A DNA stretch of 64,000 nt, taken from assembly GCA_026706895.1 (NCBI GenBank), contig JAPOXW010000020.1, forward strand, positions 57,329 to 121,328, given 5' to 3'. The first letter of the stretch is position 1; every line of letters starts with the position of its first letter. The DNA comes from Gammaproteobacteria bacterium (lineage in GTDB: Bacteria; Pseudomonadota; Gammaproteobacteria; Poriferisulfidales; Poriferisulfidaceae). A program made the translations under genes and the position numbers. Below, in pieces: positions 19,930 through 59,042 of this stretch. Under the pieces are notes generated by a model. The model was not told the origin of the DNA. It saw only the letters and a list, made by a program, of their open reading frames with translations, and ran no database searches.

Positions 19930-19958
19930 AGTAAAGGATTTGACATGCATGTTCTACA

Positions 19959-22462: not shown

Positions 22463-22612
22463 CAGGCTGCAAACCCATAAAAGAGCTATACAAAATTGAT
22501 TCTCAAGGCGAATTTAATTATAATAAGTGCCCGGCATGAGCCGGGCCATCAATCCTTAACTATAGAGTCGCGTAACGCTTTGGTAACTAGCGGCATGATT
22601 GAGCGGTAGTCG

Positions 22613-30965: not shown

Positions 30966-33305
30966 ATGTTTCGCTCGAGATTCGGTCCGATTCTGCTCGT
31001 TCTTGCCCTAATGCTGGTGGTGCCGCGCGCATTTGCATTCATCGTGGAGGATATCGAGTTGCAGGGCCTGCAGCGCCTGGAGGCCGCGACCGTGTTCACC
31101 TATCTCCCGGTGGAGGTGGGCGAGGATTTCGACGTGTCCCGGACCAGCGAGGTGGTGCGAGCACTGTTCAAGTCCCAGCTGTTCAGCGACGTGGAGGTGT
31201 CGCGCCGCGGCAACGTGCTGGTCGTCAGGGTGGTGGAACGCCCGGCCATCACTGAAATTGCCTTCGAGGGCCTCGAGGTTATCAAGGACGAAACCCTGGA
31301 GGAGGTGCTGGAGGACGCCGGCATCGCGACCGGACGGATCTTCAACCAGCCGTTGCTGGACCGCCTCAACAACGAGATTCTGCAGCAGTACCACGCGATC
31401 GGCTTCTACAACGCGGAAGTTGCGGTCAGCGTCCACGACATGGGCGAGAACCGGGTGGCGGTCCATATCAACGTGGTGGAGGGCGAGCCGGCGACCATCC
31501 GGCAGGTGCACGTGGTCGGCAATGTCTCGTATACCGAGGAACGGCTGCTGGAACTGTTCGAATCCTCCGAGCCGGCCTGGTACGACATCATGGGCAACAC
31601 CGGCAAGTACTCGAAATTGCAGTTGTCGGGTGACCTGGAGCGGTTGCGTTCGTTCTACTTGAACCGGGGATTCCTGAAGTTCCGGGTGGATTCGGCGCAG
31701 ATTTCGCTGAGCCCGGATCGCGAGGGCATCTACATCACGGTCCACATCAACGAGGGCCGACGTTTCGTGGTGCGCGAGGTCTCCCTTTCCGGCATCTTCA
31801 TCGTGCCGCAGGCAGAACTGACCTCGTTGCTGACCATTCAGGCGGGCGAATATTTCTCCAGTGCGCGGGCACAGAGTTCCAGCAGCCGGCTGACCGCCCG
31901 GCTTGGCGAAGAAGGTTATTCCTTCGCCAAGGTCAACCCGGTCACCAATCTCGATGAGGAAGCGGGCGAGGTGACGGTCAACTTCTTCATTGATCCGGGT
32001 CAGCGAGTGTACGTGCGTCGTATCGACATCGTGGGCAACTACACGACCCAGGACGAGGTGCTGCGCCGGGAGTTGCGGCAGATGGAGGGAGCCTGGCTGT
32101 CGTCTCCGAACCTGGAACGCTCGCGCCGGCGTTTGCAGCGACTTCCGTATATCGACACCGTGGAGATTGCGCAAACCCGGGTCCCGGGCACCAACGACCA
32201 GGTCGACCTCATCATCACCGTCACCGAGCGGCTGGCCGGCAACTTCACGGCCGGCGCGGGGTTCAGCAGCGGAAGCGGCCTGTCGCTGGCGGCCGGCGTG
32301 GAGCAGGAGAACTTCTTCGGTACCGGCAACCGGGTCGGCATCCACTTCGACAACAGCGAGACCTCCACCCGGTATTCCTTCGACTTCTACAACCCGTACT
32401 ACACCATCAACGGCGTCAGCCGCAGCTTCGGCTTCAGCACGCGAAAGGTGGATACGTCGGGTGCCGACCAGCAGACCCAGTACGAGTCACGCGACTTCGC
32501 CGGCTATCTGAGCTACGGGATCCCGATCGCCGACGACAGCACTTTCACCTTCGCCGCCCGCTTCCAGAGGATTAATTTCGATGTGGGCAGGAGTTCGTCC
32601 TTCCTGGTGCTGGACTTCCTCGCGAATAACGACGGGGACTGCCTGTATACCGGGGTGATTGCGGACACGCAAGCGAACCTGTGGCACTGCGAGGCCACGT
32701 ACTACAACCTGTCGCTGATCGGCTCCTTTGCCTACGACACCCGCGACCGCAGCCTGTTTACGCGCGAGGGTTCGCTGCGCCAGGTATCCGCCCGGGCGAC
32801 GATGCCCGGCAGCGGCCTGGAGTACTACGTCCTGTCCTATGTCCAGGAGGAATACCTGAAACTGACCGAGGACCTGACGTTCGCGCTCAAGGGCGAGGCC
32901 GCCTATGGGGACGGCTACAGGGACACCGACGATCTGCCGTTCTCGCAGAAGTTCGTGATCGGCGGGCCGAGGAGCGTGCGCGGCTTTGAAATCAACACGC
33001 TGGCTCCCCGCGATGAATTCGACAAGCCATACGGCGGCAACCTGAAGTTGGGCTACTCGCTCGAACTGTCGTTTCCTCTCCCGTTCATCGACGAGGCCAA
33101 CCTGCGCGGGGCCATGTTCCTGGATTCGGGCTACGTATTCGAAGAGGCAGAGGATTTCGATTTCCAGGAGATGCGCGCTTCACTTGGCATCGGCATATCC
33201 TGGCTGTCGCCACTCGGGGGGGTGTCGATGAGCCTGTCTCTGCCGATTAACGATCACGAAACAGACAAGACGGAGTCGTACCAGTTCAATCTGGGGTCGC
33301 TCTAG
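30966..33305 (+). CDS. bamA: outer membrane protein assembly factor BamA
   Basis: 779 aa; signal peptide, five POTRA repeats and a C-terminal Omp85 beta-barrel ending ...SLSLPINDHETDKTESYQFNLGSL. Confidence 0.9.
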   Translation: MFRSRFGPILLVLALMLVVPRAFAFIVEDIELQGLQRLEAATVFTYLPVEVGEDFDVSRTSEVVRALFKSQLFSDVEVSRRGNVLVVRVVERPAITEIAFEGLEVIKDETLEEVLEDAGIATGRIFNQPLLDRLNNEILQQYHAIGFYNAEVAVSVHDMGENRVAVHINVVEGEPATIRQVHVVGNVSYTEERLLELFESSEPAWYDIMGNTGKYSKLQLSGDLERLRSFYLNRGFLKFRVDSAQISLSPDREGIYITVHINEGRRFVVREVSLSGIFIVPQAELTSLLTIQAGEYFSSARAQSSSSRLTARLGEEGYSFAKVNPVTNLDEEAGEVTVNFFIDPGQRVYVRRIDIVGNYTTQDEVLRRELRQMEGAWLSSPNLERSRRRLQRLPYIDTVEIAQTRVPGTNDQVDLIITVTERLAGNFTAGAGFSSGSGLSLAAGVEQENFFGTGNRVGIHFDNSETSTRYSFDFYNPYYTINGVSRSFGFSTRKVDTSGADQQTQYESRDFAGYLSYGIPIADDSTFTFAARFQRINFDVGRSSSFLVLDFLANNDGDCLYTGVIADTQANLWHCEATYYNLSLIGSFAYDTRDRSLFTREGSLRQVSARATMPGSGLEYYVLSYVQEEYLKLTEDLTFALKGEAAYGDGYRDTDDLPFSQKFVIGGPRSVRGFEINTLAPRDEFDKPYGGNLKLGYSLELSFPLPFIDEANLRGAMFLDSGYVFEEAEDFDFQEMRASLGIGISWLSPLGGVSMSLSLPINDHETDKTESYQFNLGSL

Positions 33306-33344
33306 CAACAGTGTAAAATGAGAGGCAATAGGAGCACTCAACTG

Positions 33345-33860
33345 ATGAAGAAATCATCCATTTTCTGGTCGCATGTGGTCGGTTTGGCATTGCTTGCCAT
33401 GGGCGGAACGGCTGCCGCACAAAACGCAAAAGTCGGATTCGTGGATGTCGGGCGCCTTCTGGAGGATTCTCCGCAGGCGGTGGCGGCTCGGCAGAAACTT
33501 CAAAACGAATTCGCACCCCGCAACGACGAGCTGGAAAAACTTCACAAAGAAGTTACCGATCTGGCCCAGAAGCTGGCGAATGAGAGCGACGTGATGTCGG
33601 AAGAACAGCGGCTTGAGCAGGAGCGAGAGGTGCAGCGTCGGCGCCGCGACTTCGAGCGCAAGCGCGACGAGGTGCGCGAGGATCTGGCGATCCGCCGCAA
33701 CGAGGAACTCGGCAAGCTGCAGGAAGAGGTCAATACGGTGGTCGCCGAGATTGCGAGCGAGGAGGGCTTCGACCTGATCCTCACCCAAGCCGTGTCCCTG
33801 TACGCCAGCAAGCGCATCGACATCACGGAGCGGGTGCTCAAGAAGATGAACAATCCGTAA
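33345..33860 (+). CDS. skp: periplasmic chaperone Skp (OmpH)
   Basis: signal peptide then coiled-coil Skp/OmpH sequence (KVGFVDVGRLLEDSPQAVAARQKLQNEF...). Confidence 0.8.
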   Translation: MKKSSIFWSHVVGLALLAMGGTAAAQNAKVGFVDVGRLLEDSPQAVAARQKLQNEFAPRNDELEKLHKEVTDLAQKLANESDVMSEEQRLEQEREVQRRRRDFERKRDEVREDLAIRRNEELGKLQEEVNTVVAEIASEEGFDLILTQAVSLYASKRIDITERVLKKMNNP

Positions 33861-33866
33861 CCGGAT

Positions 33867-34886
33867 GTGGTGTCGCTGACCCTGGGTCAGATCGCGGAAA
33901 TCGCGGACGCCCGGATTTCCGATCCTCCGCCGGTTCCGGATCTCCTTATCGATCACGCTTCCTCCCTGGGCACTGCCGGGCCCGGTTCCATTTCCTTCTA
34001 CAGTCACGCCCGCCACCGGGCTGAACTGCAACAGACCCAAGCGAGCGTGGTGCTGCTGCGCGAACCGGACCGGGCCGATTGCCCGGTTCCGGCGCTGTCC
34101 TGCAAGGATCCCTATCTCGGCATGGCGCGAGTGCTGCAGGCCTTGTACCCGATCCCCGAGGTGACGCATGCCGTCCATCCCGGCGCCCTCGTCGACGACA
34201 GCGCGCAGTTGGAGGCGCCGGTGCGGGTGGATTTCGGTTGCGTGGTGGGGGCGAATGCGCGCGTCGGCGCCGGCAGCGTGCTCGGCCCGCACTGTGTGAT
34301 CGGCGAAGGCGTGACCTTGGGCGAAGGCTGTGTCCTGCATGCCCGGGTTACCTTGAACGAAGGGGTCCGGGTCGGTGACCGGGTGGAGTTCTGGCCCGGC
34401 GTGGTGGTCGGATCCGACGGTTTCGGCTATGCCCAACAGGATCAGCAGTGGGTCAAACTGGTACACCGCGGCGGCGTACGGATCGGGGACGACTGCGAGA
34501 TCGGGTCCAACAGCACCATCGACCGCGGCATGCTGGATGACACCGTGATCGGCTGCGGGGTCAAGATCGACAACCAGGTGCAAGTTGCACACAACGTCCG
34601 CATCGGCGATCACTCCGCCATCGCCGGCAATGCGGGCATCGCGGGAAGCGCGAAGATTGGCCGCTACTGCCAGATCGGAGGGGCGGCCGGCGTGCAGGGC
34701 CACGTGGAGTTGGCCGATGGGGTTATCATTACAGGCATGTCCAAGGCGAACCAGACGCTGACCCGTGCCGGTGCATACAGTTCCGGCACGTCCATCCAGG
34801 AGAATGCGGACTGGTTGCGCAACGTGGCCCGCTTCAAGCAGCTCGACCGGATCGTGCGGGCCCTGAAGCAAGGAGAGAAGACGTGA
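33867..34886 (+). CDS. lpxD: UDP-3-O-(3-hydroxyacyl)glucosamine N-acyltransferase
   Basis: GTG start; left-handed beta-helix hexapeptide repeats; bamA-skp-lpxD-fabZ-lpxA order. Confidence 0.9.
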   Translation: MVSLTLGQIAEIADARISDPPPVPDLLIDHASSLGTAGPGSISFYSHARHRAELQQTQASVVLLREPDRADCPVPALSCKDPYLGMARVLQALYPIPEVTHAVHPGALVDDSAQLEAPVRVDFGCVVGANARVGAGSVLGPHCVIGEGVTLGEGCVLHARVTLNEGVRVGDRVEFWPGVVVGSDGFGYAQQDQQWVKLVHRGGVRIGDDCEIGSNSTIDRGMLDDTVIGCGVKIDNQVQVAHNVRIGDHSAIAGNAGIAGSAKIGRYCQIGGAAGVQGHVELADGVIITGMSKANQTLTRAGAYSSGTSIQENADWLRNVARFKQLDRIVRALKQGEKT

Positions 34887-35341
34887 GCGAAGGTTTTGAC
34901 ATCCAGGAGATCCAGCGGCTGCTGCCGCATCGTCACCCGTTCCTGCTGGTGGACCGGGTTCTGGAAATTGACCCCGGGGTATCGATTCAGGCGATCAAGA
35001 ACATTACGGTCGACGAACCATTCTTCCAAGGGCATTTCCCCGGAATCCCGATCTTCCCGGGCGTCCTGATCCTGGAGGTGATGGCCCAGGCTTCTGGCCT
35101 GCTGGTGTTTAAAACGCCGGAGTACTGCCCGGAGAACGACAACCTGTACATGTTCGTCGGGGTCGACAAGGCCCGCTTCAAGAAACCAGTCGTGCCTGGC
35201 GACCAGCTGGAGGTCGACGTGAAACTGATGTGGATGCGCCGGAACTGCGCCTCATTCGATGCCACCGCCTCAGTCGACGGCGAAGTCGTGGCCACCGCCG
35301 GGATCATGTGCATGTTCAAGGAACTGCCGTCAGAGGCGTAA
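34883..35341 (+). CDS. fabZ: 3-hydroxyacyl-ACP dehydratase FabZ
   Basis: LLPHRHPFLLVDRVLE, HFPGIPIFPGVLILEVMAQ hot-dog fold. Confidence 0.95.
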   Translation: MSEGFDIQEIQRLLPHRHPFLLVDRVLEIDPGVSIQAIKNITVDEPFFQGHFPGIPIFPGVLILEVMAQASGLLVFKTPEYCPENDNLYMFVGVDKARFKKPVVPGDQLEVDVKLMWMRRNCASFDATASVDGEVVATAGIMCMFKELPSEA

Positions 35342-35355
35342 CCGGACTCCGAGAC

Positions 35356-36138
35356 TTGAGTATTCATCCGACGGCCGTGGTGGACGCCGGGGCGGAGATC
35401 GACCCCACGGCGGAAATCGGCCCGTACGCGGTCATCGGCCCGCACGTGCGCATCGGCGCCGACACCTGGGTCGGCCCGCACGCCGTGGTCACCGGGCGCA
35501 CCACCGTGGGCCGGGAGAACCGGGTCTTCCAGTTTGCCTCGGTCGGCGAGATTCCGCAGGACAAGAAGTATGCCGGCGAGGACAGCGAACTGGTCATCGG
35601 CGACGGCAACACCATCCGCGAGTTCGTGACCCTCAACTGCGGCACGGCCCAGGGCGAGAACTGCACCCGGATCGGGAACCGGAACTGGATCATGGCGTAC
35701 GTGCACATTGCGCACGACTGCGTAATCGGGGACGACGTGACATTTGCGAACGGTGCAACGCTGGCGGGTCATGTCGAGATCGAGGATCACGCGATTCTGG
35801 GAGGCTTCACCCTGGTGCACCAGTTCTGCCGCATCGGACGCCATGCGTTCAGCGGCATGGGCTCCGCCTTGAACAAGGACCTCCCGCCTTTCGTGCTGGC
35901 ATCGGGCAACCTGGCCCGTCCTTACGGACTCAACCGCGAAGGATTGCGCCGGGCCGGCTTCTCCGAGGAGACGATGGAGGCGTTGTCACGGGCCTACAAG
36001 CTGCTGGTCCGTGTGTCGGGCGGGCAGCCGGAGGACGAGATCCAGCAACTGGCCGGACAATATCCGGAAGTGGAGCAGATGCGGGCGTTTATCGCAGAGA
36101 GTCGCCGCGGCATCATCCGCGAGAAGAGTTCCGACTGA
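35356..36138 (+). CDS. lpxA: acyl-ACP--UDP-N-acetylglucosamine O-acyltransferase
   Basis: TTG start 15 nt after fabZ stop; SIHPTAVVDAGAEI... hexapeptide repeats; 260 aa. Confidence 0.9.
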   Translation: MSIHPTAVVDAGAEIDPTAEIGPYAVIGPHVRIGADTWVGPHAVVTGRTTVGRENRVFQFASVGEIPQDKKYAGEDSELVIGDGNTIREFVTLNCGTAQGENCTRIGNRNWIMAYVHIAHDCVIGDDVTFANGATLAGHVEIEDHAILGGFTLVHQFCRIGRHAFSGMGSALNKDLPPFVLASGNLARPYGLNREGLRRAGFSEETMEALSRAYKLLVRVSGGQPEDEIQQLAGQYPEVEQMRAFIAESRRGIIREKSSD

Positions 36139-36190
36139 ATCGATTCGCTAGACGGTTTCTTGTGCAGAATGCCCTGCCCCATTTATGCTT

Positions 36191-36219
36191 TTGACAGCAT
36201 ATAATCTATAAGTTATATT
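36191..36219 (+). promoter_or_regulatory. putative sigma70 promoter (TTGACA - 17 bp - TATATT) in an AT-rich spacer after lpxA
   Basis: near-consensus -35 and a good -10 in an unusually AT-rich 150-bp stretch upstream of the inserted membrane-protein gene. Confidence 0.3.
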
Positions 36220-36296
36220 ATTCGCATGAGGTGGGCGGTTGCGTTTGATGTAATTTCTGGGCAAGAGCCTGGGGTTTTGGCTGCCGGGGCCGAACA

Positions 36297-36632
36297 ATGC
36301 GGAGGCGTGTCTGCTCTTGGTATCATGAGAGCGTTCTCATGGCTTTTGGGCGCGAAATCAAGATGGAGTTCGAGCGAGTGAAAGTGAGTCCCGAGATGGT
36401 GGGGATCGTCGGCGGATGGCTGACCGTTCTCGTGTTCGTGTGGACCCTAGGCCAGGATATGAGCGATTTGCGCACGGACATGAGCGATCTGCGCGTGGAC
36501 ATGAGCGATCTGCGCACGGAGCTGAAGGGCGATATCGCGCATCTCAACGGACGCATGGCGCGTGTCGAAGGCTTGCTCGAAGGTTACATCGAGAGATCTC
36601 GGACTGGGGAAGATATTGCGGTAACCGAATGA
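36297..36632 (+). CDS. hypothetical membrane-anchored coiled-coil protein with tandem DMSDLR(T/V) repeats
   Basis: one TM helix (MVGIVGGWLTVLVFVWTL), then DMSDLRT-DMSDLRV-DMSDLRT-ELKGDIAHLNGRMARVEGLLEGYI heptad coiled coil; start uncertain (36297/36339/36363). Confidence 0.45.
   Translation: MRRRVCSWYHESVLMAFGREIKMEFERVKVSPEMVGIVGGWLTVLVFVWTLGQDMSDLRTDMSDLRVDMSDLRTELKGDIAHLNGRMARVEGLLEGYIERSRTGEDIAVTE
36456..36518 (+). repeat. 3 x 21-bp perfect/near-perfect tandem repeat (GAYATGAGCGATYTGCGCRYG) inside the membrane-protein gene
   Basis: gatatgagcgatttgcgcacg / gacatgagcgatctgcgcgtg / gacatgagcgatctgcgcacg, in frame, encoding DMSDLR(T/V). Confidence 0.85.
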
Positions 36633-36728
36633 TCCGATCAGACAGGTCTTTCGCCTTTGGGACAGAGCGGTTCTACTGAGCGAGCGAGAAAGGAGATATA
36701 GAGTTCCGGGCAATCACCGAGAGTTTTT

Positions 36729-37082
36729 GTGGGCAGTAAAACATCGAAGACTTTGGAGGAGGTGCTGAACCAGTTCTCTCCTGAGCAGCGCAAGAAAATC
36801 GACGAACGAACGGACGAACTGATCGCCGAAATCATGTCGTTGCGGGATTTGCGCAAAGTCCGGGAGCAGACTCAGGAGCATGTCGCCGAGGTGCTCGAAA
36901 TCACCCAGGAGAATGTTTCGCGCATTGAGCGACGTCGGGACCTCCTGGTCTCGACGCTCAGGCGGCACGTCGAAGCGTTAGGCGGGCGATTGAGCCTGAT
37001 CGCAAAGTTTCCCGACCGTCCTCCAGTGGAACTGACCGGCATCGCCGATTCGGATGACAGCGAATCTCCGGCTCGGTCGTAA
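36729..37082 (+). CDS. XRE-family HTH regulator of the HigA-like antitoxin type
   Basis: GTG start; SLRDLRKVREQTQEHVAEVLEITQENVSRIERRRDLLVSTLRRHVEALGGRLSLIAKFPD matches antitoxins usually paired with an upstream RelE/ParE/HigB toxin. Confidence 0.7.
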   Translation: MGSKTSKTLEEVLNQFSPEQRKKIDERTDELIAEIMSLRDLRKVREQTQEHVAEVLEITQENVSRIERRRDLLVSTLRRHVEALGGRLSLIAKFPDRPPVELTGIADSDDSESPARS

Positions 37083-37172
37083 GGCGGGTCGGCTCGGGTG
37101 TGGCATCGTCTGTCGGCGCAGCCTCCCTGGGCATCTGCTTAATATGACTACATTGGTCTTTTCTGGCTGAAA

Positions 37173-37414
37173 ATGCAGGAAATTCAACTGCGCGAGGCAA
37201 AGGCGAAACTGTCCGCCCTCGTCGACGGCCCTATCATGGAGCCACCGTGGTGATTACCCGACACGGCAAGCCCCGAGCGGTTATTCTGGGGGTTGACGAA
37301 TGGAATCGGCTCCGCCGGGTCCCTTCCTTCGGTGAATTGCTGATGTCGGCTCCCATAGAGGACGGGGACCTGCCGGAACGGGACACCAGTCCTCCGCGTG
37401 AGATCGAGTTTTAG
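37173..37414 (+). pseudogene. Phd/YefM-family antitoxin gene disrupted by a frameshift
   Basis: frame 1: MQEIQLREAKAKLSALVDGPIMEPPW* (stop 37251-37253); -1 frame continues VVITRHGKPRAVILGVDEWNRLRRVPSFGELLMSAPIEDGDLPERDTSPPREIEF*; together a complete antitoxin. Confidence 0.55.
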
Positions 37415-37422
37415 GGTTGTCC

Positions 37423-37527
37423 GTGTACCTCGCGGACACAAACGTGCTATCGCTTGGGGCACTGGACCGACCCGATGCGCCCATACTGGAGTGGATGCAC
37501 GGGCACTCCGATAGCCTCCGAATATAG
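37423..37527 (+). pseudogene. truncated VapC (PIN) toxin remnant
   Basis: VYLADTNVLSLGALDRPDAPILEWMHGHSDSLRI* is the first ~34 aa of a PIN toxin including the first catalytic Asp, then terminates; abuts the lpxB 3' end. Confidence 0.45.
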
Positions 37528-37561
37528 AATTCTCGAATTTTTTCCCGCGCTGCGACAGAAA

Positions 37562-38686
37562 TCACCCGGACGTCGAAATCACCTGTTCCGCGCAGTCGGC
37601 CAGCTGGCGCATGCCGGCAGCCGGCCCCAGCCGCTCCTCGACTTTCTGCAGTCGCGCGCGCATCTGGTCGAGCTGGGTCGGATCGTCCAGCCATGGCGTA
37701 AGGGCAGCCGTAACCTGCCGGGGTGTTGCATCGGCCTGGATCAACTCGGTGACCAGGTCTTCGCCCGCGACGATGTTCGCGAGGCAATACCGGTCGATGC
37801 GCACCAGCAGGCGTGCCAGCAGGTAGCTCAGGTTCGCCAGACGATAAATCATGCAGAACGGGACGCGCATCAAAGCCAGTTGCAAAGTGACCGTGCCGGA
37901 GGCCGCCGCCGCCATGTCGCACACCTGCATGGCGTCGTAGACCGGTTCCTGCAGGCATTTCACTTCGGGCAGGTCGCCGAGCCACGGGGCGTAGTCGCTC
38001 GGTTTCAGCCCGGGCGGCATCACCAGCGCGAACTGTGGCCGGGCGGGATGATTCCTCAGTTCGCGCACCGCTCCGGCGCAGACCGGCATCAGGTGGGCGA
38101 GTTCGCTGCGACGGGAGCCGGGGAAGAGGCCGACCACGGGGCGCTGCGCGTCCAGTCCCCAGCGCTCGCGGACGGCATCGGGCGATCGCGTCGGACTTGT
38201 TTGCCCGCGCAGGGGGTGTCCGACATAAGTGACGGGCACGCGATGTTTTTCGTAGAAATCCCGCTCGAACGGGAAGACCACCGCCATGTGGTCGACGTGA
38301 CGGCGGATGGCGTGCACCCGCCAGGCCCGCCAGGCCCAGATCTGCGGGCTGATGTAGAACAGCACCGGCACGCCGTGTCGATGCGCGAACCGGGCGAGCC
38401 GCAAGTTGAATTCCGGGTAGTCGACCAGCACCAGAAGTTGGGGTTTCCAGGCCAGGACCTGTGCCTTGAGGGTCTTCAGCGCACTTCGGATTTCCCGGTA
38501 ATGGCGCAAGACCTCCACCAGCCCGACGACCGCAAGCTCGGTGGAATCGACCACCAGTTCGATGCCGGCTTCGCGTGAGGCTTCGCCGCCCATGCCGGAC
38601 CAGGTCCATTCGGGATGCCGGGCATGCAGTTCCTTGACCAGTTCCGCTGCGTATCGATCCCCGGAGGCCTCCCCGGAGACCAGCAT
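37562..38686 (-). CDS. lpxB: lipid-A-disaccharide synthase
   Basis: 375 aa from ATG 38686 (MLVSGEASGDRYAAELVKEL...); GT-B fold; the 454-aa track ORF is a GC-driven extension. Confidence 0.9.
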   Translation of the reverse strand: MLVSGEASGDRYAAELVKELHARHPEWTWSGMGGEASREAGIELVVDSTELAVVGLVEVLRHYREIRSALKTLKAQVLAWKPQLLVLVDYPEFNLRLARFAHRHGVPVLFYISPQIWAWRAWRVHAIRRHVDHMAVVFPFERDFYEKHRVPVTYVGHPLRGQTSPTRSPDAVRERWGLDAQRPVVGLFPGSRRSELAHLMPVCAGAVRELRNHPARPQFALVMPPGLKPSDYAPWLGDLPEVKCLQEPVYDAMQVCDMAAAASGTVTLQLALMRVPFCMIYRLANLSYLLARLLVRIDRYCLANIVAGEDLVTELIQADATPRQVTAALTPWLDDPTQLDQMRARLQKVEERLGPAAGMRQLADCAEQVISTSG

Positions 38687-38702
38687 CAAGTGGGGGGCCG
38701 TT

Positions 38703-39800
38703 TCAGGATTCGGCACGAGCGAGACTGGCGCAGATTTGTTCGATCTGGGCGGGCGAAAGCTCCGGGAACATTGGCAGCGACAGGCACTGGTCGCAGACCT
38801 GCTCGGCCGCCGGCAGCGAAACCCCATCCGCCCATGGCACATAGGCTTCCTGCCGGTGCAGGGGGATCGGATAGTAGATCCGGCTTTCAATGCCGTCCTT
38901 GGCCAGTTGCTCCTGGAGGGCGTCACGCTGCGGGCTCAGCAGGGTGTATTGGTGCCAGACGTGGCCGTCCGCGTCCGCGGGAGGCTGGATTCCGTCCAGT
39001 TTCTGGAGCCTTTCGGCATAGCGGCCTGCGGCCTGCCGGCGTTTCTCGTTCCATTCGGCGACATGCGGGAGTTTGATGCGCAGGACGGCGGCCTGGAGCT
39101 CGTCGAGGCGGCTGTTCAGGCCCAGCGTTTCGTGGTGGTAGGGCTGGCTGGAGCCGTGGTTGCGCAAGGCGCGCAGCCGGGTGGCGAGCTCGGGGTCCCC
39201 GGTCGCCACGGCACCGCCGTCGCCGCATCCGCCCAGGTTCTTGCTGGGGAAGAAGCTGAAGGAGGCGATCTGCCCGAATGTGCCGGTCGCCTGGCCTGCG
39301 GTTCTTGCACCAAAACTTTGCGCGCAATCCTCGACAATGGCGACATCCGGCCCGATTGCCTCTCGGACGGCGGAAACGTCGGCGGGTCGGCCGTACAGGT
39401 GCACGACCACGGCCGCGCGGGTGCGGGATGTAATCGCGTTTCGGCACGATTCGGGATCGACCAGGAAAGAGTCGGGGTCGATGTCCACGAAAACCGGGCG
39501 CGCGCCGGTCAGGGCGACGGCCTCGGCGGGCGCGGCGAATGTGAAGGCCGGGACCAGGACCTCGTCGCCGGGACCAATATCAAGTGCACGCAGGGACAGG
39601 CACAGTGCGTCCGTGCCGGAAGCGCAACTGACCACGTGGCCGATGCCGAGCATCTCGCCGAGTTCTGCTTCCAGGGCCCCGACCTCCGGACCGAGCACGT
39701 ACCGGCCGCTGCGCAGCACGCGCAGGGCGGCGGCCTCGATATCCTCCTGCAGGGCCGCGTATTGCTTGGTCAGGTCCAGGATGGGAATGGTGGGGCTCAT
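38703..39800 (-). CDS. gnnB: DegT/DnrJ/EryC1-family PLP aminotransferase (GnnB-like UDP-3-keto-GlcNAc transaminase)
   Basis: 365 aa; aminotransferase class V-like fold with the PLP-lysine region (SFFPSKNLGGCGDGGAV); lies between lpxB and a Gfo/Idh/MocA gene as in the gnnA-gnnB lipid A loci. Confidence 0.7.
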   Translation of the reverse strand: MSPTIPILDLTKQYAALQEDIEAAALRVLRSGRYVLGPEVGALEAELGEMLGIGHVVSCASGTDALCLSLRALDIGPGDEVLVPAFTFAAPAEAVALTGARPVFVDIDPDSFLVDPESCRNAITSRTRAAVVVHLYGRPADVSAVREAIGPDVAIVEDCAQSFGARTAGQATGTFGQIASFSFFPSKNLGGCGDGGAVATGDPELATRLRALRNHGSSQPYHHETLGLNSRLDELQAAVLRIKLPHVAEWNEKRRQAAGRYAERLQKLDGIQPPADADGHVWHQYTLLSPQRDALQEQLAKDGIESRIYYPIPLHRQEAYVPWADGVSLPAAEQVCDQCLSLPMFPELSPAQIEQICASLARAES

Positions 39801-40744
39801 GAGGCGTCCGTCTCCCGCATTCGCCGGGTGACTTCCAGTGCGGTGCGCAAGGCACGCAGGCCATCTTCTCCCCGCACCATGGGTTCGGTGCCCTGCCGGA
39901 TGCAGTCGATGAAGTGGTGGATCTCCTCGCGCAGCGAATCGGTCTCCTGGAAGGCCTCGGTCGTATGCTCGATGCGTTCCGAGGGTGGGGCATCGCCTTC
40001 GCGCAGGCGGTAACGGTCCAGTTCCCGCTTGTGCAGGTCGAGAGCGTAGCAGGAATGGTGCTGGAAGACGCGCATCCGGCGCTCGCTGCGGCGGCTCAGG
40101 CGGCTGGCGGTGACATTGGCGACGCAGCCGCCGGGGAACTCGAGCCGGGCATTGGCGATGTCCAGGGTGTCGCCGATCACGGCGGCGCCGCTGGCGCGGA
40201 TTTCATGGGGATCCTCGCCGACCACGGTCAGGGCCAGATCGATGTCGTGGATCATCAGGTCCAGGGTCACGTCGATTTCGGCGCCGCGCGGAGTCCAGGG
40301 CGCCAGGCGGTGGACTTCGATGAAACGGGGGGTCTCAAGCCCCTGCATCAGGGCGCAGAACGCCGAGTTGAACCGCTCCAGCAGGCCGACCTGAACGATG
40401 CGTTGCTTCTGGCGGGCGAGATCGATCAGTTCGGTGGCTTCTTCGACCGAGGAGGTGAAAGGCTTCTCGACCAGCACGTGGCAATCGGCTTCCAGGCAGG
40501 CCCGGGTGATCTCGTAGTGTTTCGCGGTCGGCACGACGATGCTGACCGCATCCGCTTGGCCGAGGATTTCGCGGTAGTCGGTGAAGCCGGGGACGTCGAG
40601 TTCTTCGCAGGCGGCGGCGAGGCGTTCGGAATCGGTGTCGACCACGCCGACCAACTCGGAATCGCCTAGGTCAGCGTATTTCTGCGCGTGAAACCGCCCC
40701 AGGTAACCGACCCCGATGACGGCGGTGCGAAGCGGGGAAGTCAC
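39797..40744 (-). CDS. gnnA: Gfo/Idh/MocA-family NAD-dependent oxidoreductase (GnnA-like UDP-GlcNAc 3-dehydrogenase)
   Basis: Rossmann N-terminus AVIGVGYLGRFHAQKY, EKP motif; probable GTG start at 40744; the 437-aa track ORF is extended by GC artefact. Confidence 0.65.
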   Translation of the reverse strand: MTSPLRTAVIGVGYLGRFHAQKYADLGDSELVGVVDTDSERLAAACEELDVPGFTDYREILGQADAVSIVVPTAKHYEITRACLEADCHVLVEKPFTSSVEEATELIDLARQKQRIVQVGLLERFNSAFCALMQGLETPRFIEVHRLAPWTPRGAEIDVTLDLMIHDIDLALTVVGEDPHEIRASGAAVIGDTLDIANARLEFPGGCVANVTASRLSRRSERRMRVFQHHSCYALDLHKRELDRYRLREGDAPPSERIEHTTEAFQETDSLREEIHHFIDCIRQGTEPMVRGEDGLRALRTALEVTRRMRETDAS

Positions 40745-40881
40745 GGGAGAAAAGGCGGTCGGACAGTGTGGCGCGGTTCCCGAAATTATAGCCCGCGGGA
40801 CTTTTCGAGGCACGGATTCCGGCTTGGGTACAATGCAGTTGTACACCCAATTTCGCTGTCTGGCCTTTCTCGATCCTGCCG

Positions 40882-41496
40882 ATGCCCGTTTCGCTGGAGT
40901 TATTGCCGACCCTGCCGGATCTTGGCTGCGTTGCGGGGGTGGACGAAGCAGGGCGGGGCGCGTTGGCCGGCCCGGTTGCCGCCGCCGCCGTGGTGCTGCC
41001 GGCGGATTGCAGTATCGAGGGCCTGACCGATTCCAAGAAGCTGACGCCAGCGCAGCGGGCGCGCGTGGCGGTGCAGGTTCGGGCCTCTGCCCGGGCGTAC
41101 GCGGTGGCATTCGTGCCGGCGCAGGAGATTGACCAAATCAACATCCTGCAGGCGAGCCTGCGTGCGATGGCGGAAGCGGTGGCCCGACTGCCGAACGGGA
41201 TCGAACACGTGCTGGTAGACGGCCGGCATTGTCCGGAATTGCCGTATCCGGCGACGGCGGTGGTTGGCGGAGATGCCCGGGTGGCCAGCATCAGCGCGGC
41301 ATCGGTGCTCGCCAAAGAGGCGCGCGACGCCTGGATGCGGCACTATGACTTGCAGGAGCCATGCTACCGGTTCACCCGGCACAAGGGTTACCCGTCGGTG
41401 GAACACCTGCGCGCGCTGTCCGAACACGGGCCCGGGCGGCAGCATCGCCGCAGTTACGCCCCGGTGCGCGCAGTTTTGGAGGAGCAGGCCGCATGA
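40882..41496 (+). CDS. rnhB: ribonuclease HII
   Basis: VAGVDEAGRGALAGPV...LTDSKKLT RNase HII motifs; 204 aa. Confidence 0.9.
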   Translation: MPVSLELLPTLPDLGCVAGVDEAGRGALAGPVAAAAVVLPADCSIEGLTDSKKLTPAQRARVAVQVRASARAYAVAFVPAQEIDQINILQASLRAMAEAVARLPNGIEHVLVDGRHCPELPYPATAVVGGDARVASISAASVLAKEARDAWMRHYDLQEPCYRFTRHKGYPSVEHLRALSEHGPGRQHRRSYAPVRAVLEEQAA

Positions 41497-44400
41497 GCTT
41501 TGTTCACCTGCACCTGCACACCGAGTATTCACTGGACGACGGGCTGGTGCGCATCGATCCGCTGATGGAGCGGGCGGCGGAACTGGCCATGCCGGCGGTC
41601 GCCCTGACCGACCGCAACAACCTGTTCGCAGCCGTCAAGTTCTACAAGACGGCGCTGAACTACGGCATCAAGCCGATCCTGGGCGCGGAGATCGACCTCG
41701 AGATCCCGGTCATGCACGACCGGTCCGCCCGGACGGTGCTGCTGTGCCAGAACCAGGACGGCTACCGGAATCTCTGCCAGTTGCTGAGCGACCGCTATCG
41801 GAAAGGGAGCGACCGGATCTTGCGCAAGGACCTGGCGAAGTGTAGCGAAGGGTTGATCGCCCTTTCCGGCGGCGTCGCCGGGGATCTCGGGCAGGCCATG
41901 GTCACCGAGAACCGTCGGGCCGCGGCCGCGGCGCTGGAATACTGGAAGCGCCATTTTCCCGAGCGGTTCTACCTGGAGGTGACCAAGACCGACCGGGAGC
42001 ACGAGGAGGATTTCCTGCAGTTCGCTCTGGAGTGCGTGAGCGAACACGATTTGCCGATGGTCGCGACCAACGACGTACGGTTCCTGTCCAGCGAAGATTT
42101 CGAGGCGCACGAGGTTCGCGTATGCATCCGCAGCCAGCAGCGCGTCAACGATCCGGACCGGGCGCGCGAGTACAGCAAGGAGCAGCATCTGCGCTCGGAG
42201 AGCGTGATGCGGGAGGCGTTCGAGGGCTACCCGGAGGCGCTTGAGAACACCGAGCAGATCGCTGTGCGCTGCAACTGCCGGCTGGACCTGGGGCGGACGC
42301 TGTTGCCTGCCTTCCCGACTCCCGACGGGGAGTCGATGGACGATTATCTGGACCGGCTGGCGCACGAGGGTTTGACCCGTCGCCTGGAGCGCCTTGAGGC
42401 CAGCGGGCGGATGGTGGGACCGGAGTCCGACTACCGGGAGCGGCTCGAGCATGAGCTCGGCGTGATTCACCAGACCGGCTTCAGCGGCTATTTCGTGATC
42501 GTCGCGGATTTCGTGGAATGGGCGCGCGACAACGACATCCCGGTCGGCCCCGGGCGCGGCTCCGGCGCGGGATCGCTGGTGGCTTACGCCCTCGGGATCA
42601 CTGGCCTCGATCCGTTGCGTTACGGACTGCTGTTCGAACGCTTCCTGAACCCTGCCCGCGTCAGCATGCCGGACTTCGACATCGATTTCTGCAACCAGAA
42701 CCGCGACCGGGTGATCGAGTACGTGCGCAAGCGTTACGGGGAGGACAGCGTGGCGCAGATCATCACTTACGGCACGATGGCGGCCAAGGCGGCGATCCGC
42801 GATGTCGGCCGTGTGCTCGGCGCGCCGTACAACTACTGCGACCGCATCGCACGCGCGGTGCCGAACGAGCTGGGGATCACCTTGGCGAAAGCCTACCAGG
42901 ACTCTCCGGAATTCCGGGAGCTGGTCAGCCATCCGGAAGACACGACGGGCGCGCACCTGTACGAGGTGGCGCTGCAGCTGGAGGGGGTGGTGCGCAATGC
43001 CTCGCGGCACGCTGCCGGGGTGGTGATTGCACCGGGCGCGCTCACTGACTTCACGCCGCTGTACTTCGAGGCCCGGCAGCCCGACGTGGCGATCACCCAG
43101 TTCGACATGAAGGATGTCGAGGCGATCGGCCTGACCAAGTTCGATTTTCTCGGTCTGCGCACGGTGACGCTGCTGCACCAGTGCCTGGGCACGGTCAATG
43201 CGCACCGGGAGTCGCGGGGCGAGCCGCAGCTGGACCTGGACACGCTGCCGCTTGACGACCCGGACACTTATGAATTGCTGCAGCGGGCGCAGACCATGGA
43301 GGTATTCCAATTGGAATCGGCCGGGATGCGCGACCTGCTGATACGGATGGGGCCGGACTGTTTCGACGACTTGGTGGCGTTGGTCGCGCTGTATCGTCCG
43401 GGACCGCTCAACTCGAAGATGGACATTGAGTACATCCAGTGCAAGCACGACCCGAGCCGGGTCAGCTACCTGCATCCGGATCTGGAGCCAATCCTGGCAT
43501 CGACCTTCGGCGTAATCCTGTATCAGGAGCAGGTGATGCAGATCGCCCGCGAACTGGCGGGCTATTCGCTCGGCGAGACCGACCTGCTGCGCCGCGCCAT
43601 GGGCAAGAAGAAGCCGGAGGAAATGGCGGAACACGCCGAGCGCTTCCAGAAGGGGGCTGCCGAGCATGGCCTGGCCCCGCTCGTGGCACGGAAGATCTTC
43701 GACCTGATGAAAGAATTCGCGGGGTACGGGTTCAATAAGTCGCATTCGGTCGCGTATGCGCTGCTGGCGTACCAGAGCGCCTGGTTCAAGACGCACCATC
43801 CGGACGCGTTCATGGCGGCGGCGATGTCCAGCGAGATCGACGACACCGACAAGCTCGCGCTGCTGTGCAAGGAGGCGCGCGAACTCGAATTGACGCTGAA
43901 GGGGCCGGACGTGAACGCGTCCGGCTACTATTTCACGGTCCCGGCAGAAGGTGAGATCCGTTACGGACTGGGCGCGATCAAGGGGGTCGGGCAGGGTTTG
44001 GTGGCGCGCCTGGTGGAGGAGCGCGGAGAAACGCCGTTTGCCAGCCTGGAGGACCTGTGCCATCGCCTGGACACCCGCGACTACAGCGAGCGGGACCTGC
44101 GCGCGTTGATTCATGCGGGTGCGCTGGACGGATTCGATGCGAGCCGTCGAGCCATGGCGGAGGCGGCCGGTCGCTTCAAGACCCAGGCTCAGCGGGTTCA
44201 GTCGGACCGGGACGTGGGTCAGGATTCGCTGTTCGCGCAAGAGCCAGCTGCGGAGTTCTGTGCGCTGCCGCAGGCCGAGGAGGAATACGAGACATCCGAG
44301 CGGCTGGCGTACGAGTTCGAAGCCTTGGGGCTCTATTTCAGCGGACATCCGTTCCTGCAGTACCGGCACCAGGTGAAGCAGGTGGTGACGCAGTCGCTGT

Positions 44401-44960
44401 CCCAAGTGCGGCAAGCCGCCGAAGAGGCGGTGGAAGCCGGACGCGGGCGGTCGTGGGAGATACGCACCGCCGGTGTGGTGATGAAGATCTCCTATCCACG
44501 CAACGGTGAGGTGGCATTCCTTGATCTTGAGGACGACCAAGAGCGGTTGGAGGTCGTCTCCCAGGATCCGAGACGTGCGAAGGACTTCGAGGTGGGAGAC
44601 TTGGTACTGGTTCAGGGAGAGGCCCGGGTTCAGCCGAAGGCGGAACGCGGCGAGCGTCTCCGGATCCGGGCAAAATCGCTTTATTCCCTGGAGCAGGTGA
44701 ACCAGCACTGGGCGAGGCGGGTACACATCATCCTCAACGGCGACAGCGGTCCGGACACGGTGCGTGCCATCAAGCAGACGCTGGCCGACCATCGGGGCGG
44801 CTGCGAAGTCAGCGTCGAATACGTGGGACAACAGGGCCCCAGCAAGTGGGTACTGGACGAGGATTGGAAGGTTTCTGCGGACGAAGAGGCGCTGCAGGCG
44901 TTGCGGGGCGTGGCGGGCGTGGAATCGGCAAATGTCCTATACTCGCCAATTGACCCCTAG
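41493..44960 (+). CDS. dnaE: DNA polymerase III alpha subunit
   Basis: ATG 41493 with GGAGGA SD, overlaps rnhB stop; MSFVHLHLHTEYSLDDG PHP domain; 1155 aa. Confidence 0.95.
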   Translation: MSFVHLHLHTEYSLDDGLVRIDPLMERAAELAMPAVALTDRNNLFAAVKFYKTALNYGIKPILGAEIDLEIPVMHDRSARTVLLCQNQDGYRNLCQLLSDRYRKGSDRILRKDLAKCSEGLIALSGGVAGDLGQAMVTENRRAAAAALEYWKRHFPERFYLEVTKTDREHEEDFLQFALECVSEHDLPMVATNDVRFLSSEDFEAHEVRVCIRSQQRVNDPDRAREYSKEQHLRSESVMREAFEGYPEALENTEQIAVRCNCRLDLGRTLLPAFPTPDGESMDDYLDRLAHEGLTRRLERLEASGRMVGPESDYRERLEHELGVIHQTGFSGYFVIVADFVEWARDNDIPVGPGRGSGAGSLVAYALGITGLDPLRYGLLFERFLNPARVSMPDFDIDFCNQNRDRVIEYVRKRYGEDSVAQIITYGTMAAKAAIRDVGRVLGAPYNYCDRIARAVPNELGITLAKAYQDSPEFRELVSHPEDTTGAHLYEVALQLEGVVRNASRHAAGVVIAPGALTDFTPLYFEARQPDVAITQFDMKDVEAIGLTKFDFLGLRTVTLLHQCLGTVNAHRESRGEPQLDLDTLPLDDPDTYELLQRAQTMEVFQLESAGMRDLLIRMGPDCFDDLVALVALYRPGPLNSKMDIEYIQCKHDPSRVSYLHPDLEPILASTFGVILYQEQVMQIARELAGYSLGETDLLRRAMGKKKPEEMAEHAERFQKGAAEHGLAPLVARKIFDLMKEFAGYGFNKSHSVAYALLAYQSAWFKTHHPDAFMAAAMSSEIDDTDKLALLCKEARELELTLKGPDVNASGYYFTVPAEGEIRYGLGAIKGVGQGLVARLVEERGETPFASLEDLCHRLDTRDYSERDLRALIHAGALDGFDASRRAMAEAAGRFKTQAQRVQSDRDVGQDSLFAQEPAAEFCALPQAEEEYETSERLAYEFEALGLYFSGHPFLQYRHQVKQVVTQSLSQVRQAAEEAVEAGRGRSWEIRTAGVVMKISYPRNGEVAFLDLEDDQERLEVVSQDPRRAKDFEVGDLVLVQGEARVQPKAERGERLRIRAKSLYSLEQVNQHWARRVHIILNGDSGPDTVRAIKQTLADHRGGCEVSVEYVGQQGPSKWVLDEDWKVSADEEALQALRGVAGVESANVLYSPIDP

Positions 44961-44972
44961 TTTTTCGCCGCC

Positions 44973-45929
44973 ATGAACCCGGATTTTCTCGACTTCGAAC
45001 AGCCGATCGCCGAACTAGACGCAAAGATCCGCGAACTCCGCCACATGGGGGCGGAGAGCGACCTGGACCTCGACACCGAGATCGAGCGCCTGCAGGGCCG
45101 CAGGCGGGCACTGGTTGAGGACATCTTCTCGAACCTGTCGGCCTGGCAGGTCACGCAACTGGCTCGCCATCCGCAGCGTCCCTACACTCGCGACTACCTG
45201 TCGTACCTGTTCAGCGAGTTCCATGAACTGCACGGCGATCAGGCGTATGCGGACGACCAGGCCATCCTGGCCGGCATGGCGCGCCTGGACAGCACGCCCG
45301 TCATGGTGATCGGACATCAGAAAGGCCGGGATACCAAGGAGAAACTGGAACACAATTTTGGCATGCCGCGGCCGGAAGGCTACCGCAAGGCGCGCCGCCT
45401 GATGCAGATGGCAGAGCGCTTCCGGATGCCGATCATCACATTCATCGATACGCCGGGCGCATACCCGGGCATTGGTGCGGAGGAACGCGGACAAAGCGAG
45501 GCGATCGCCCGCAACCTGGAGGTCATGGCCGAACTGAGGGTGCCGATCGTGAGTGTCGTGATTGGCGAGGGCGGTTCCGGCGGCGCGTTGGCGATCGGCG
45601 TGGGCGATCACCTGATGATGCTGCAGTACAGCATCTATTCGGTGATTTCCCCGGAAGGCTGCTCATCCATTCTCTGGAAGAGTGCCGAAAAGGCGCAAGA
45701 GGCCGCCGAGGCCCTGGGCCTGACGTCGGAGCGTCTCAAGCAACTCGAATTGATCGACGAAATCGTGGAAGAACCGCTGGGCGGTGCGCACCGCGACCTG
45801 GAGGCCATGTCCGCCACCCTGAAGCAGGCGTTGGCGAAGAGTCTGGCGGAACTCGGGGCCCTGGATCCGGTGGCGCTGGTCGACCGTCGGGAGGACCGGT
45901 TGCTGCAGGTCGGGATGTACCAGACATGA
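44973..45929 (+). CDS. accA: acetyl-CoA carboxylase carboxyltransferase alpha subunit
   Basis: 318 aa; [19 protein letters not shown]..., crotonase fold. Confidence 0.95.
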
Positions 45930-47191
45930 CGCCGTCCGCTCTTGCCGTCGCGAAGGCCCTGGAGGCGCTGCCGGAAGTCTGTCCCGGCGTGCGGACTTGG
46001 GTCGTGGCCTACAGCGGGGGCCGGGATTCGACCGCACTGTTGCATGCCACGCGTGCGTTTGCCGCGCAGCGCGGCGACGCGGTTCGGGCTGTGCACGTCA
46101 ACCACGGGTTGCAGCCTGCGGCCCGGGACTTCGAGCAACACTGCGTGGCAGTCTGTCGCGAGTGGGGGATTTCCTTGGAGCGGATGCAGCGGGAGGCAGA
46201 TCCGACCCCCGGGCTAGGCCCGGAGGCGCAGGCGCGCGAGATCCGCTACCAGGCATTGCGTCGGCATGCGCGTCGCGGGGTTGCTATCCTGCTGGCGCAC
46301 CACCGGGACGACCAGGCGGAAACCCTGCTGCTGCAGTTGCTGCGCGGCGCCGGCGTGGCCGGGACCGCCGCCATGCCGTTGTGCCGGGACTGGGGAGAAG
46401 GGAAGCTCGTGCGCCCGCTGCTGGACGTGTCACGCCAAGAGATTGAAGACTACGTCCGCGACCACCGTTTGGCGTTCATGGAGGACCCCAGCAACCTCGA
46501 CACCGGGATCGAGCGCAATTTCCTGCGCCGCGAGGTGCTGCCCCTGCTGGAGGAACGCTGGCCTTCGGCATCGCAAACATTGGCCCGCTCGGCCCGGCAT
46601 CATGCGCACGCTGCACATTTGTTGAAAGAACGCGCTGAACAGGACCTGGACGACGCGGACACGATCGAGGTGGAGTTCCTGGCCTCGCTCTCGCAGGACC
46701 GGCAGATCAACCTGGTGCGCTTCTGGATTGCCCGACAGGGGTTTCCGGTCCCAAGCGAACGGCGGCTTTCGCGGTGGCTGGACACGGTACACGCCGCTGG
46801 CGCCGACCGCGTGCCGGCAGAGATCTTCGAGGCCTACCGGATGTACCGTTGGCGCGGCCATCTGCATCTGGTGCCCCGGTTGCCGACCGTGCCGGAGGGG
46901 CAGTGCTGGCACTGGCGCCGGGGAGAAGCGCTGGTCCTGCCGGAATTGGATATGGAATTGCGCTGGGAGTCGCTGCAGGAGCAACTGGGCGAGGAAGTCG
47001 AGACGGATCTTGAAGTGCGGTTGCGTACGGGAGGGGAGCGCTGCCGGCCCGAAGGCCGGCAGCACCGCCATTCATTGAAGAAACTGCTACAGGAAGCGGG
47101 GATTCCGCCGTGGCGTCGCGGTCGGATCCCGCTGGTCTACCAGCACGCGAACCTCCGGTTGGTCTGGGACCATTTCGCGTGCCGGCCGTAG
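45926..47191 (+). CDS. tilS: tRNA(Ile)-lysidine synthetase
   Basis: [15 protein letters not shown]-loop SGGxDS; 421 aa; follows accA as in E. coli. Confidence 0.85.
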
Positions 47192-56477: not shown

Positions 56478-56561
56478 CGTACAGTGGACATTAACCTGAT
56501 TTTTAAAAATTTCACTACGCTGTGCAGGGATAAAAATCCGTATAAATATCGAGACTAGATG

Positions 56562-57304: not shown

Positions 57305-57350
57305 TCCGAGCTTTGATGGGCTTGTTCAAAGGTTTGTATGGGAGGCTAAT

Positions 57351-57885: not shown

Positions 57886-57979
57886 GGCTTATTCCTTGGC
57901 AAGCAATTATCAGATTATACGCCCGATTCTGGAGCGTCTGCTGATTGCCGCTTACCCGTGAATTCTTCGAAATTCTGTC

Positions 57980-58928: not shown

Positions 58929-59042
58929 ATGCAAATGGCACTTACTGCGAAAGGACTTGGCATTGAAAACTGTCCCGAATTGAATTCAATGCGAGAGCGA
59001 ATAAGAAAACCCCAAGAATAAAACGTAAGTGCAGTTTTTTCC

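Follow-up and report, generated by a model that had tools for sequence, protein, structure and literature searches.

Lipid A that carries 2,3-diamino-glucose (GlcN3N) is associated with two enzymes, GnnA and GnnB, whose biochemical role is credited to Sweet et al. 2004 in those passages of PMC8036547, PMC3342949 and PMC5644692 that cite this work. Knowledge of the two enzymes, of the pathway in which they act and of their link to lpxA and lpxB dates from 2004, and gnnA/gnnB homologues are routinely taken as predictors of GlcN3N (PMC5644692, PMC7663294, PMC3342949). In Campylobacter jejuni, an epsilonproteobacterial pathogen and in this respect a carrier unlike the one considered here, the pair sets whether lipid A acyl chains are N- or O-linked, and its loss leads to increased Toll-like receptor 4 (TLR4) activation and increased sensitivity to antimicrobial peptides (van Mourik et al. 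2010, as cited in the relevant passage of PMC8036547). In Acidithiobacillus (locus L081 of our survey, see below), the genes form one run on a single strand, rseP-bamA-skp-lpxD-fabZ-lpxA-gnnA-gnnB-lpxB-rnhB-dnaE, and GnnA of Acidithiobacillus ferrooxidans is represented by the structures 7bvj and 7bvk. Chemical descriptions of lipid A with 2,3-diaminoglucose, from Chromatiaceae and related phototrophs, are decades old. The two enzyme classes of GnnA and GnnB, a Gfo/Idh/MocA 3-dehydrogenase and a DegT 3-aminotransferase, also act on uridine diphosphate (UDP)-linked N-acetylhexosamines as WbpB/WbpE in Pseudomonas aeruginosa and WlbA/WlbC in Bordetella and Chromobacterium, systems that use the uronic acid UDP-GlcNAcA and are encoded in O-antigen clusters (2,3-diacetamido-mannuronic acid pathway). 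Here we describe a gnnA-gnnB-lpxB block in a stretch of 64,000 nt from a gammaproteobacterial genome (contig JAPOXW010000020.1, positions 57,329 to 121,328; hereafter, the window) which, like the Acidithiobacillus locus, has three genes between lpxA and rnhB, but carries them on the opposite strand as a separate unit with its own predicted promoter.

The best matches of the window, which has a guanine-plus-cytosine (GC) content of ~62%, are metagenome-assembled genomes labelled Candidatus Porisulfidus (LpxB identity up to 96%), uncultured sulfur-oxidising gammaproteobacterial sponge symbionts. Within 30966-47191, the plus strand encodes bamA, skp, lpxD, fabZ and lpxA, the last ending at 36138, and then rnhB, dnaE, accA and tilS; interposed between lpxA and rnhB are three minus-strand genes (37562-40744) for LpxB, a DegT-family aminotransferase and a Gfo/Idh/MocA-family oxidoreductase. 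This gene content, order and strandedness had been described in an initial annotation of the window, and family matches to all three genes and to their flanks bore it out; the segment delimited there, 37562-40881, has the lpxB stop codon and the last base before the rnhB start as its exact limits. The GnnA/GnnB-type module that the same annotation placed in the lpxA/lpxB slot is likewise supported, with Acidithiobacillus L081 carrying the same genes in the same slot. Judged by profile matches, the family assignment is unambiguous for lpxB, lpxA and rnhB, all of which pass curated cut-offs (Table 1), and is clear at the superfamily level for the oxidoreductase and the aminotransferase, whose names in public records are generic ('Gfo/Idh/MocA family oxidoreductase' and 'DegT/DnrJ/EryC1/StrS family aminotransferase').

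We regard the gene identities, the operon structure, the orthology of GnnA and the conservation of the layout as established. The best explanation of the locus, to which we assign a probability of roughly 0.8, is that the gnnA-gnnB-lpxB operon supplies a GlcN3N-containing lipid A and that its opposite-strand layout results from an old in-place inversion of an ancestral colinear lpxA-gnnA-gnnB-lpxB-rnhB arrangement, inherited by many sulfur-oxidising and related Gammaproteobacteria.

A search of all solved structures identified 7bvj, the Protein Data Bank entry of the enzyme called GnnA, as the best relative of the oxidoreductase (216 bits, residues 7-308), with the next structure at 88 bits and WlbA (3q2i) at 45 bits. 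The 7bvj sequence, as given in the alignment, is 97-99% identical to NCBI-named Acidithiobacillus proteins, and the 7bvj-like protein of Acidithiobacillus is encoded between lpxA and a DegT gene. Given the gap between the 7bvj and WlbA scores and the origin of 7bvj in an Acidithiobacillus lpxA-gnnA-gnnB-lpxB locus, the oxidoreductase is, by sequence, a clear orthologue of GnnA and not of WbpB, with a predicted GnnA activity. Compared end to end, the Acidithiobacillus and window proteins are ~40% identical (tblastn), and the two aminotransferases 50.5%, with the same predicted chemistry. The window oxidoreductase matches PF01408 with 115 bits and has C-terminal domains in addition, and its NAD-binding and EKP motifs, GVGYLG and LVEKPF, align to GVGHLG and LIEKPF of 7bvj. 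The linkage of gnnA to gnnB and lpxA/lpxB is kept in more than 20 loci.

The aminotransferase is less easily placed. Among solved structures, it is most similar to 7b0d (350 bits), DesV (327), WbpE (300) and QdtB (288), of which the last three are 3-aminotransferases and 7b0d is uncharacterised for this purpose. The catalytic-lysine motif SFFPSKNLG aligns with SFFPSKPLG of WbpE, the mutant chain 3nys having A at the lysine position. In BLASTP comparisons, lpxB-adjacent homologues scored highest (376-388 bits, 54-55% identity), followed by Acidithiobacillus GnnB (350 bits, 50.5%), 7b0d (348), DesV (308) and WbpE (286, 43%), and all three of the nearest non-Porisulfidus homologues that were checked, from Ectothiorhodosinus mongolicus, Geoalkalibacter ferrihydriticus and one metagenome-assembled genome, are encoded directly upstream of lpxB. 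More generally, more than 30 independent loci, drawn from several families, have a DegT gene directly preceding lpxB, an adjacency that exceeds chance, and in most of these loci a Gfo/Idh/MocA gene is present too; the lists of GnnA and GnnB homologues overlap in their taxa (Desulfuromonadales, relatives of Ectothiorhodospiraceae). We refer to this gene as the gnnB candidate because it is coupled to an evident gnnA on one side and to lpxB on the other, occupies the position of Acidithiobacillus gnnB, and has nearest homologues that are themselves linked to lpxB.

The three genes appear to be expressed as one unit. The gnnA stop and gnnB start codons overlap as ATGA, and gnnB ends 14 nt inside the lpxB frame, given the lpxB GTG start at 38716 (an alternative ATG lies at 38686); because of these two overlaps, we consider gnnA-gnnB-lpxB a single translationally coupled operon. 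The GTG start of gnnA, at 40744, was picked to fit relatives of equal length (315 amino acids). In the spacer that separates gnnA from rnhB, a conserved TATAAT is located at 40790-40785 on the minus strand, in the direction of gnnA and ~40 nt upstream of its start, and a conserved TACAAT at 40829-40834 on the plus strand, in the direction of rnhB. Alignment of this spacer from ten Porisulfidus loci showed CTATAAT to be identical in the eight closer sequences, the two divergent loci L011 and L012 having a TATAAT nearby that aligned to different columns, and the block GCATTGTACCCAAGCC to be nearly invariant. It was this cross-species conservation that identified the gnnA promoter motif, and not the consensus promoter and terminator scan of 36000-41100, which detected nothing at the block edges and had as its sole matches a promoter and a hairpin within the cassette inserted between lpxA and lpxB. 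An Rfam scan of 35000-42000 returned no match at E<=0.1. To judge from its motifs, the gnnA/rnhB spacer looks like an ordinary divergent promoter pair.

In the proposed pathway, whose enzyme activities and lipid A product we infer by analogy with the characterised system of Acidithiobacillus, the operon would be transcribed from a conserved promoter of its own that points away from rnhB. GnnA would oxidise the 3''-OH of UDP-N-acetylglucosamine (UDP-GlcNAc) with NAD+, and GnnB would transaminate the resulting 3''-keto sugar to the 3-amino derivative UDP-GlcNAc3N, which LpxA, LpxC and LpxD would then turn into a 2,3-diamino sugar with amide-linked acyl chains. LpxB, produced from the same transcript, would join two diamino-sugar units, yielding a GlcN3N-containing lipid A backbone, either wholly GlcN3N or with glucosamine (GlcN) mixed in. 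We consider GlcN3N lipid A a plausible prediction for this organism.

Several results weigh against this assignment and call for alternatives to be considered. With a GnnB profile built from 17 non-Porisulfidus lpxB-linked homologues, the window aminotransferase scored 475 bits, short both of the range of the members themselves when left out one at a time (492-660) and of 7b0d (493), and it exceeded WbpE (429) by just 46 bits. In a neighbour-joining tree of 32 sequences, WbpE, DesV and 7b0d split from the rest with a bootstrap of only 46%. By sequence, the aminotransferase falls in the group of sugar-nucleotide 3-aminotransferases comprising GnnB, WbpE and DesV, within which comparison does not part GnnB from WbpE. 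The top NCBIfam match of the oxidoreductase, 'UDP-N-acetylglucosamine 3-dehydrogenase', scored 194 bits, short of the cut-off of 450, and comparison of LpxA with solved structures gave no signal of amino-sugar selectivity. A second neighbour-joining tree, of 21 sequences, placed the Porisulfidus aminotransferases outside a weakly supported group. The grouping of the two enzymes given in the initial annotation accordingly stands in full for the oxidoreductase, which goes with GnnA and not with WbpB/WlbA; for the aminotransferase, the preference for GnnB over WbpE is weakly supported by 350 against 286 bits, and neither tree nor profile separates the two.

These ambiguities would fit a pair whose 3-amino sugar enters some other glycan and not lipid A, be it 2,3-diacetamido uronic acids of an O-antigen, as with WbpB/WbpE, or the product of an archaeal-type UDP-GlcNAc3N route, with the linkage to lpxB being merely positional: the aminotransferase is inseparable by sequence from WbpE or 7b0d, and the NCBIfam model that best matches the oxidoreductase is that of the archaeal UDP-GlcNAc 3-dehydrogenase, an enzyme that feeds an acetamido-sugar pathway. 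We nevertheless hold such a role to be quite improbable, given the gap between the GnnA and WlbA scores of the oxidoreductase (216 against 45 bits), the stop/start overlaps that bind both genes to lpxB in place of an O-antigen cluster, and the occurrence of the aminotransferase beside lpxB across Gammaproteobacteria, Acidithiobacillia and Desulfuromonadales, with gnnA accompanying it in most loci. Moreover, nine of ten large open reading frames (ORFs) sampled in the window are housekeeping genes (thrS, pheT, lepB, dapE, glnD, pyrG, mgtE, ptsP and others) and the tenth has no family match, and no wbpA-, wbpD- or wbpI-like gene was found among the gene neighbours (lpxB, rnhB) and these ten sampled ORFs. 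A less radical alternative, unlikely in our estimation although it deserves more weight, is that the genes are intact yet contribute little, the backbone being chiefly GlcN or, as in Campylobacter and Capnocytophaga, a GlcN3N-GlcN hybrid, since LpxA would accept both sugar nucleotides. The window LpxA does find its nearest solved relatives among ordinary gammaproteobacterial enzymes, with 281 bits for Escherichia coli 1lxa against 170 bits for Leptospira 3hsq, and hybrid backbones have been documented in organisms carrying gnnA/gnnB (PMC3342949); for these two reasons, the proportion of GlcN3N in the backbone is not predictable from the locus. Against a minor contribution, all three ORFs are full length with intact catalytic motifs, and they retain 66-97% identity across Porisulfidus species even though complete chromosomes measure only 1.6-2.0 Mb, which argues for selection on the function of gnnA-gnnB-lpxB.

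To determine how widely the layout is shared, we searched 80 loci, collected by means of LpxB, for 16 proteins of the window with tblastn. The gnnA-gnnB-lpxB block is divergent from rnhB in all 12 Porisulfidus loci (L001-L012; LpxB identity from 96% down to 66%), and lpxB is convergent with lpxA in all ten of those in which lpxA lies inside 10 kb. The remaining two, from divergent Candidatus Porisulfidus (L011, L012), keep tilS-accA-dnaE-rnhB and gnnA-gnnB-lpxB and show no lpxA-fabZ-lpxD-skp-bamA within 10 kb past lpxB, so that synteny breaks at the same convergent junction. Ten gammaproteobacterial loci outside Porisulfidus have the same orientation relative to rnhB (rnhB< >gnnA-gnnB-lpxB>), representing at least four other families: Ectothiorhodospiraceae (L017), Ectothiorhodospira magna (L029), Thioalkalispiraceae (L021, L040), Thiohalophilus (L014), HGW-Gammaproteobacteria-1 (L024), Thiothrix sp. 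(L054), unclassified gammaproteobacterial genomes (L013, L016) and the complete genome of Ectothiorhodosinus mongolicus (CP023018; L083). The layout on both sides, lpxA included, was found in the Ectothiorhodospiraceae, Thioalkalispiraceae and Thiothrix-labelled loci, those of Thiohalophilus and Granulosicoccaceae having it in part. The opposite-strand layout is thereby common to cultured relatives with public genomes. In L029 and L083, which read dnaE< rnhB< >gnnA gnnB lpxB> ... <lpxA <fabZ with identities of ~50-55% to the window, 3-4 kb of other genes, for example for a Na/Pi cotransporter, lie between lpxB and lpxA, whereas the window has a 1.4-kb cassette of toxin-antitoxin (TA) type at this position and some Porisulfidus genomes have nothing. 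The colinear layout was found in Acidithiobacillus (L081), Geoalkalibacter and the Geobacter-like loci L025 and L057.

The junction between lpxA and lpxB is the variable part of the locus. Across Porisulfidus, the spacer measures 21 bp in L002, L004 and L009 and ~0.2 kb in L008; it reaches 0.8-1.3 kb in L001, L003, L005 and L006 and 2.3-2.7 kb in L007 and L010, the window falling between these with 1.4 kb, and has differing contents in which genes of helix-turn-helix and TA type are partly shared. The most widely shared piece is the helix-turn-helix gene (L001, L003, L005, L006, L007, L010). The TA remnants reported in the initial annotation are real, namely a frameshifted Phd/YefM gene and a 34-codon PIN/VapC stub (Table 1), of which L007 carries intact counterparts: an 80-amino-acid Phd/YefM homologue (PF02604, 52 bits) and a 147-amino-acid PIN protein (PF01850, 37 bits). 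The DMSDLR(T/V) repeats of the ORF at the other end of the cassette are encoded by 21-nt units (~36457-36519), of which L003 appears to carry two copies. No target-site duplication was evident at the ends of the 1.4-kb insertion. As L002, L004 and L009 share the orientation of the window with a junction of just 21 bp, the TA cassette is a later, strain-variable insertion and not a breakpoint scar; the TA debris is unrelated to the inversion and was inserted at the convergent junction of already inverted genomes.

This bears directly on the age of the inversion. The initial annotation had read the block as inverted, with TA remnants marking one inversion boundary, and had proposed looking for short inverted repeats at both. 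The block is indeed flipped in place relative to Acidithiobacillus L081, and also relative to the gene order of E. coli, and the degraded phd and vapC genes and low-GC DNA do lie at the boundary on the lpxA side, as would suit a recent, lineage-specific inversion of gnnA-gnnB-lpxB with breakpoints marked by TA remnants and the cassette. This scenario is nonetheless highly improbable: the orientation is common to all Porisulfidus species-level genomes and to the other gammaproteobacterial families listed above, the lpxB/lpxA junction is clean in three relatives, and the other boundary is a conserved promoter region of 130-180 bp. A search for inverted repeats pairing 36140-37560 with 40745-40880 yielded none, the only matches being short, imperfect and at chance level in GC-rich coding sequence. 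The GC content of the block, 0.663, is like that of its flanks (0.63-0.66), and its plus-strand GC skew, +0.062, equals the window mean of +0.060, with a third-position skew that is not negative, whereas a recently flipped segment is expected to show skew of the opposite sign. Relatives sharing the layout, boundaries free of inverted repeats, and composition matching the surroundings together argue for an old flip; what does not hold is the notion of a noteworthy rearrangement with breakpoint debris, and relatives in which the orientation is ancestral and lacks breakpoint features are what the initial annotation had itself named as refuting it. A more speculative extension of the old inversion, which we consider improbable, is that it removed gnnA-gnnB-lpxB from the transcript of lpxD-fabZ-lpxA and left the block with a promoter to itself, allowing the whole clade to tune the ratio of amide to ester linkages in lipid A separately from bulk lipid A synthesis, while the junction became a hot spot for TA cassettes, possibly affecting read-through between lpxB and lpxA. 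Of this, the conserved separate promoter motif and the variable junction are the parts observed; if true, such tuning would affect membrane robustness or host immune recognition in sulfur-oxidising Gammaproteobacteria, sponge symbionts included.

Table 1. Features of the lpxA-rnhB interval, in window coordinates
Feature	Position	Strand	Evidence and remarks
lpxA	35335-36138	+	Passes the cut-offs of NF003657 (360 bits) and TIGR01852 (330 bits); ends the bamA-skp-lpxD-fabZ-lpxA run; convergent with lpxB
Strain-variable insertion, 1420 bp	36140-37559		Between convergent stop codons; GC 0.563 against 0.63-0.66 in flanks
Sigma-70-like promoter	36191-36219		11/12 matches; precedes the 111-amino-acid ORF
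ORF, 111 amino acids	36297-36632	+	Unmatched in Pfam and NCBIfam; the 7-residue unit DMSDLR(T/V) occurs three times in tandem after a hydrophobic stretch
Small helix-turn-helix protein, 117 amino acids	36729-37082	+	Weak Pfam matches: Sigma70_r4 26.3 bits (above gathering threshold); HTH_31 23.1 and HTH_37 20.4 bits (below)
Phd/YefM-type antitoxin pseudogene	37173-37414	+	Frameshift after codon 26; conceptually repaired product matches PF02604 with 47 bits
Truncated vapC (PIN toxin) remnant	37423-37527	+	34 codons, then stop; aligns to N-terminus of the L007 PIN protein
lpxB, lipid-A-disaccharide synthase	37562-38716	-	TIGR00215 259 bits (cut-off 190), PF02684 272 bits; third gene of operon
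gnnB candidate, predicted pyridoxal-phosphate-dependent DegT-family sugar-nucleotide 3-aminotransferase, 365 amino acids	38703-39800	-	PF01041 377 bits
gnnA, predicted NAD-dependent UDP-GlcNAc 3-dehydrogenase, Gfo/Idh/MocA family, 315 amino acids	39797-40744	-	7bvj 216 bits; first gene of operon
Putative divergent promoter region gnnA/rnhB	40745-40881		137-bp spacer, conserved in Porisulfidus (130-180 bp)
rnhB (RNase HII)	40882-41496	+	NF000595 222 bits (cut-off 167), PF01351 124 bits; divergent from gnnA; dnaE follows via ATGA overlap

Variants of the locus were encountered in other bacteria during the survey. Ten loci from Deltaproteobacteria/Thermodesulfobacteriota (L033, L034, L036, L039, L042, L043, L044, L048, L059, L070) have a colinear lpxA-lpxB arrangement with a GnnA-like oxidoreductase, 40-47% identical, between the two genes and no adjacent DegT gene; in these, either gnnB is located elsewhere or the oxidoreductase has a different function. 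Conversely, Granulosicoccaceae loci (L031, L037, L038, L047, L050, L073) and L085 have gnnB-lpxB convergent with lpxA and no gnnA homologue detected beside gnnB, the genes upstream of gnnB in L085 being those for a chloride channel and a solute-binding protein. In Methylococcaceae UBA2778 (L023, 6977-11116), gnnA-gnnB-lpxB is colinear with, and preceded by, a gene for an LpxA-like protein (36% identical), which may represent an additional, divergent paralogue of the acyltransferase reserved for the amino sugar. Separately, the structure 7b0d, deposited as 'Glutamine--scyllo-inositol transaminase', scored close to Acidithiobacillus GnnB on the GnnB profile (493 bits, against 503 bits for the latter when left out), and, judging from this similarity, the name under which it was deposited may obscure a function as a UDP-sugar 3-aminotransferase.

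Elsewhere in the window, an ORF of 540 amino acids at 59687-61309 on the plus strand, with a GC content at third codon positions (GC3) of 0.72, has no Pfam match at E<=1e-6. By a crude GC3-based gene call, two stretches, ~19930-23100 and ~56480-59160, are without a high-GC3 ORF of at least 90 amino acids, unlike the remaining window; these could harbour RNA genes or low-GC DNA of foreign origin, and one or the other may be the inserted cassette to which the initial annotation alluded.

What is new here is solely the specific annotation of the GnnA/GnnB pair in Candidatus Porisulfidus and its relatives, and no new mechanism is involved. The locus supports more specific names for these genes than the generic ones now in public records. 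In Campylobacter, the amide-linked trait goes with weaker activation of TLR4 and makes the cells more resistant to antimicrobial peptides, according to the passage of PMC8036547 that treats it. By prediction, the Candidatus Porisulfidus symbionts, together with the free-living relatives that carry the same locus, should make GlcN3N lipid A with amide-linked acyl chains.

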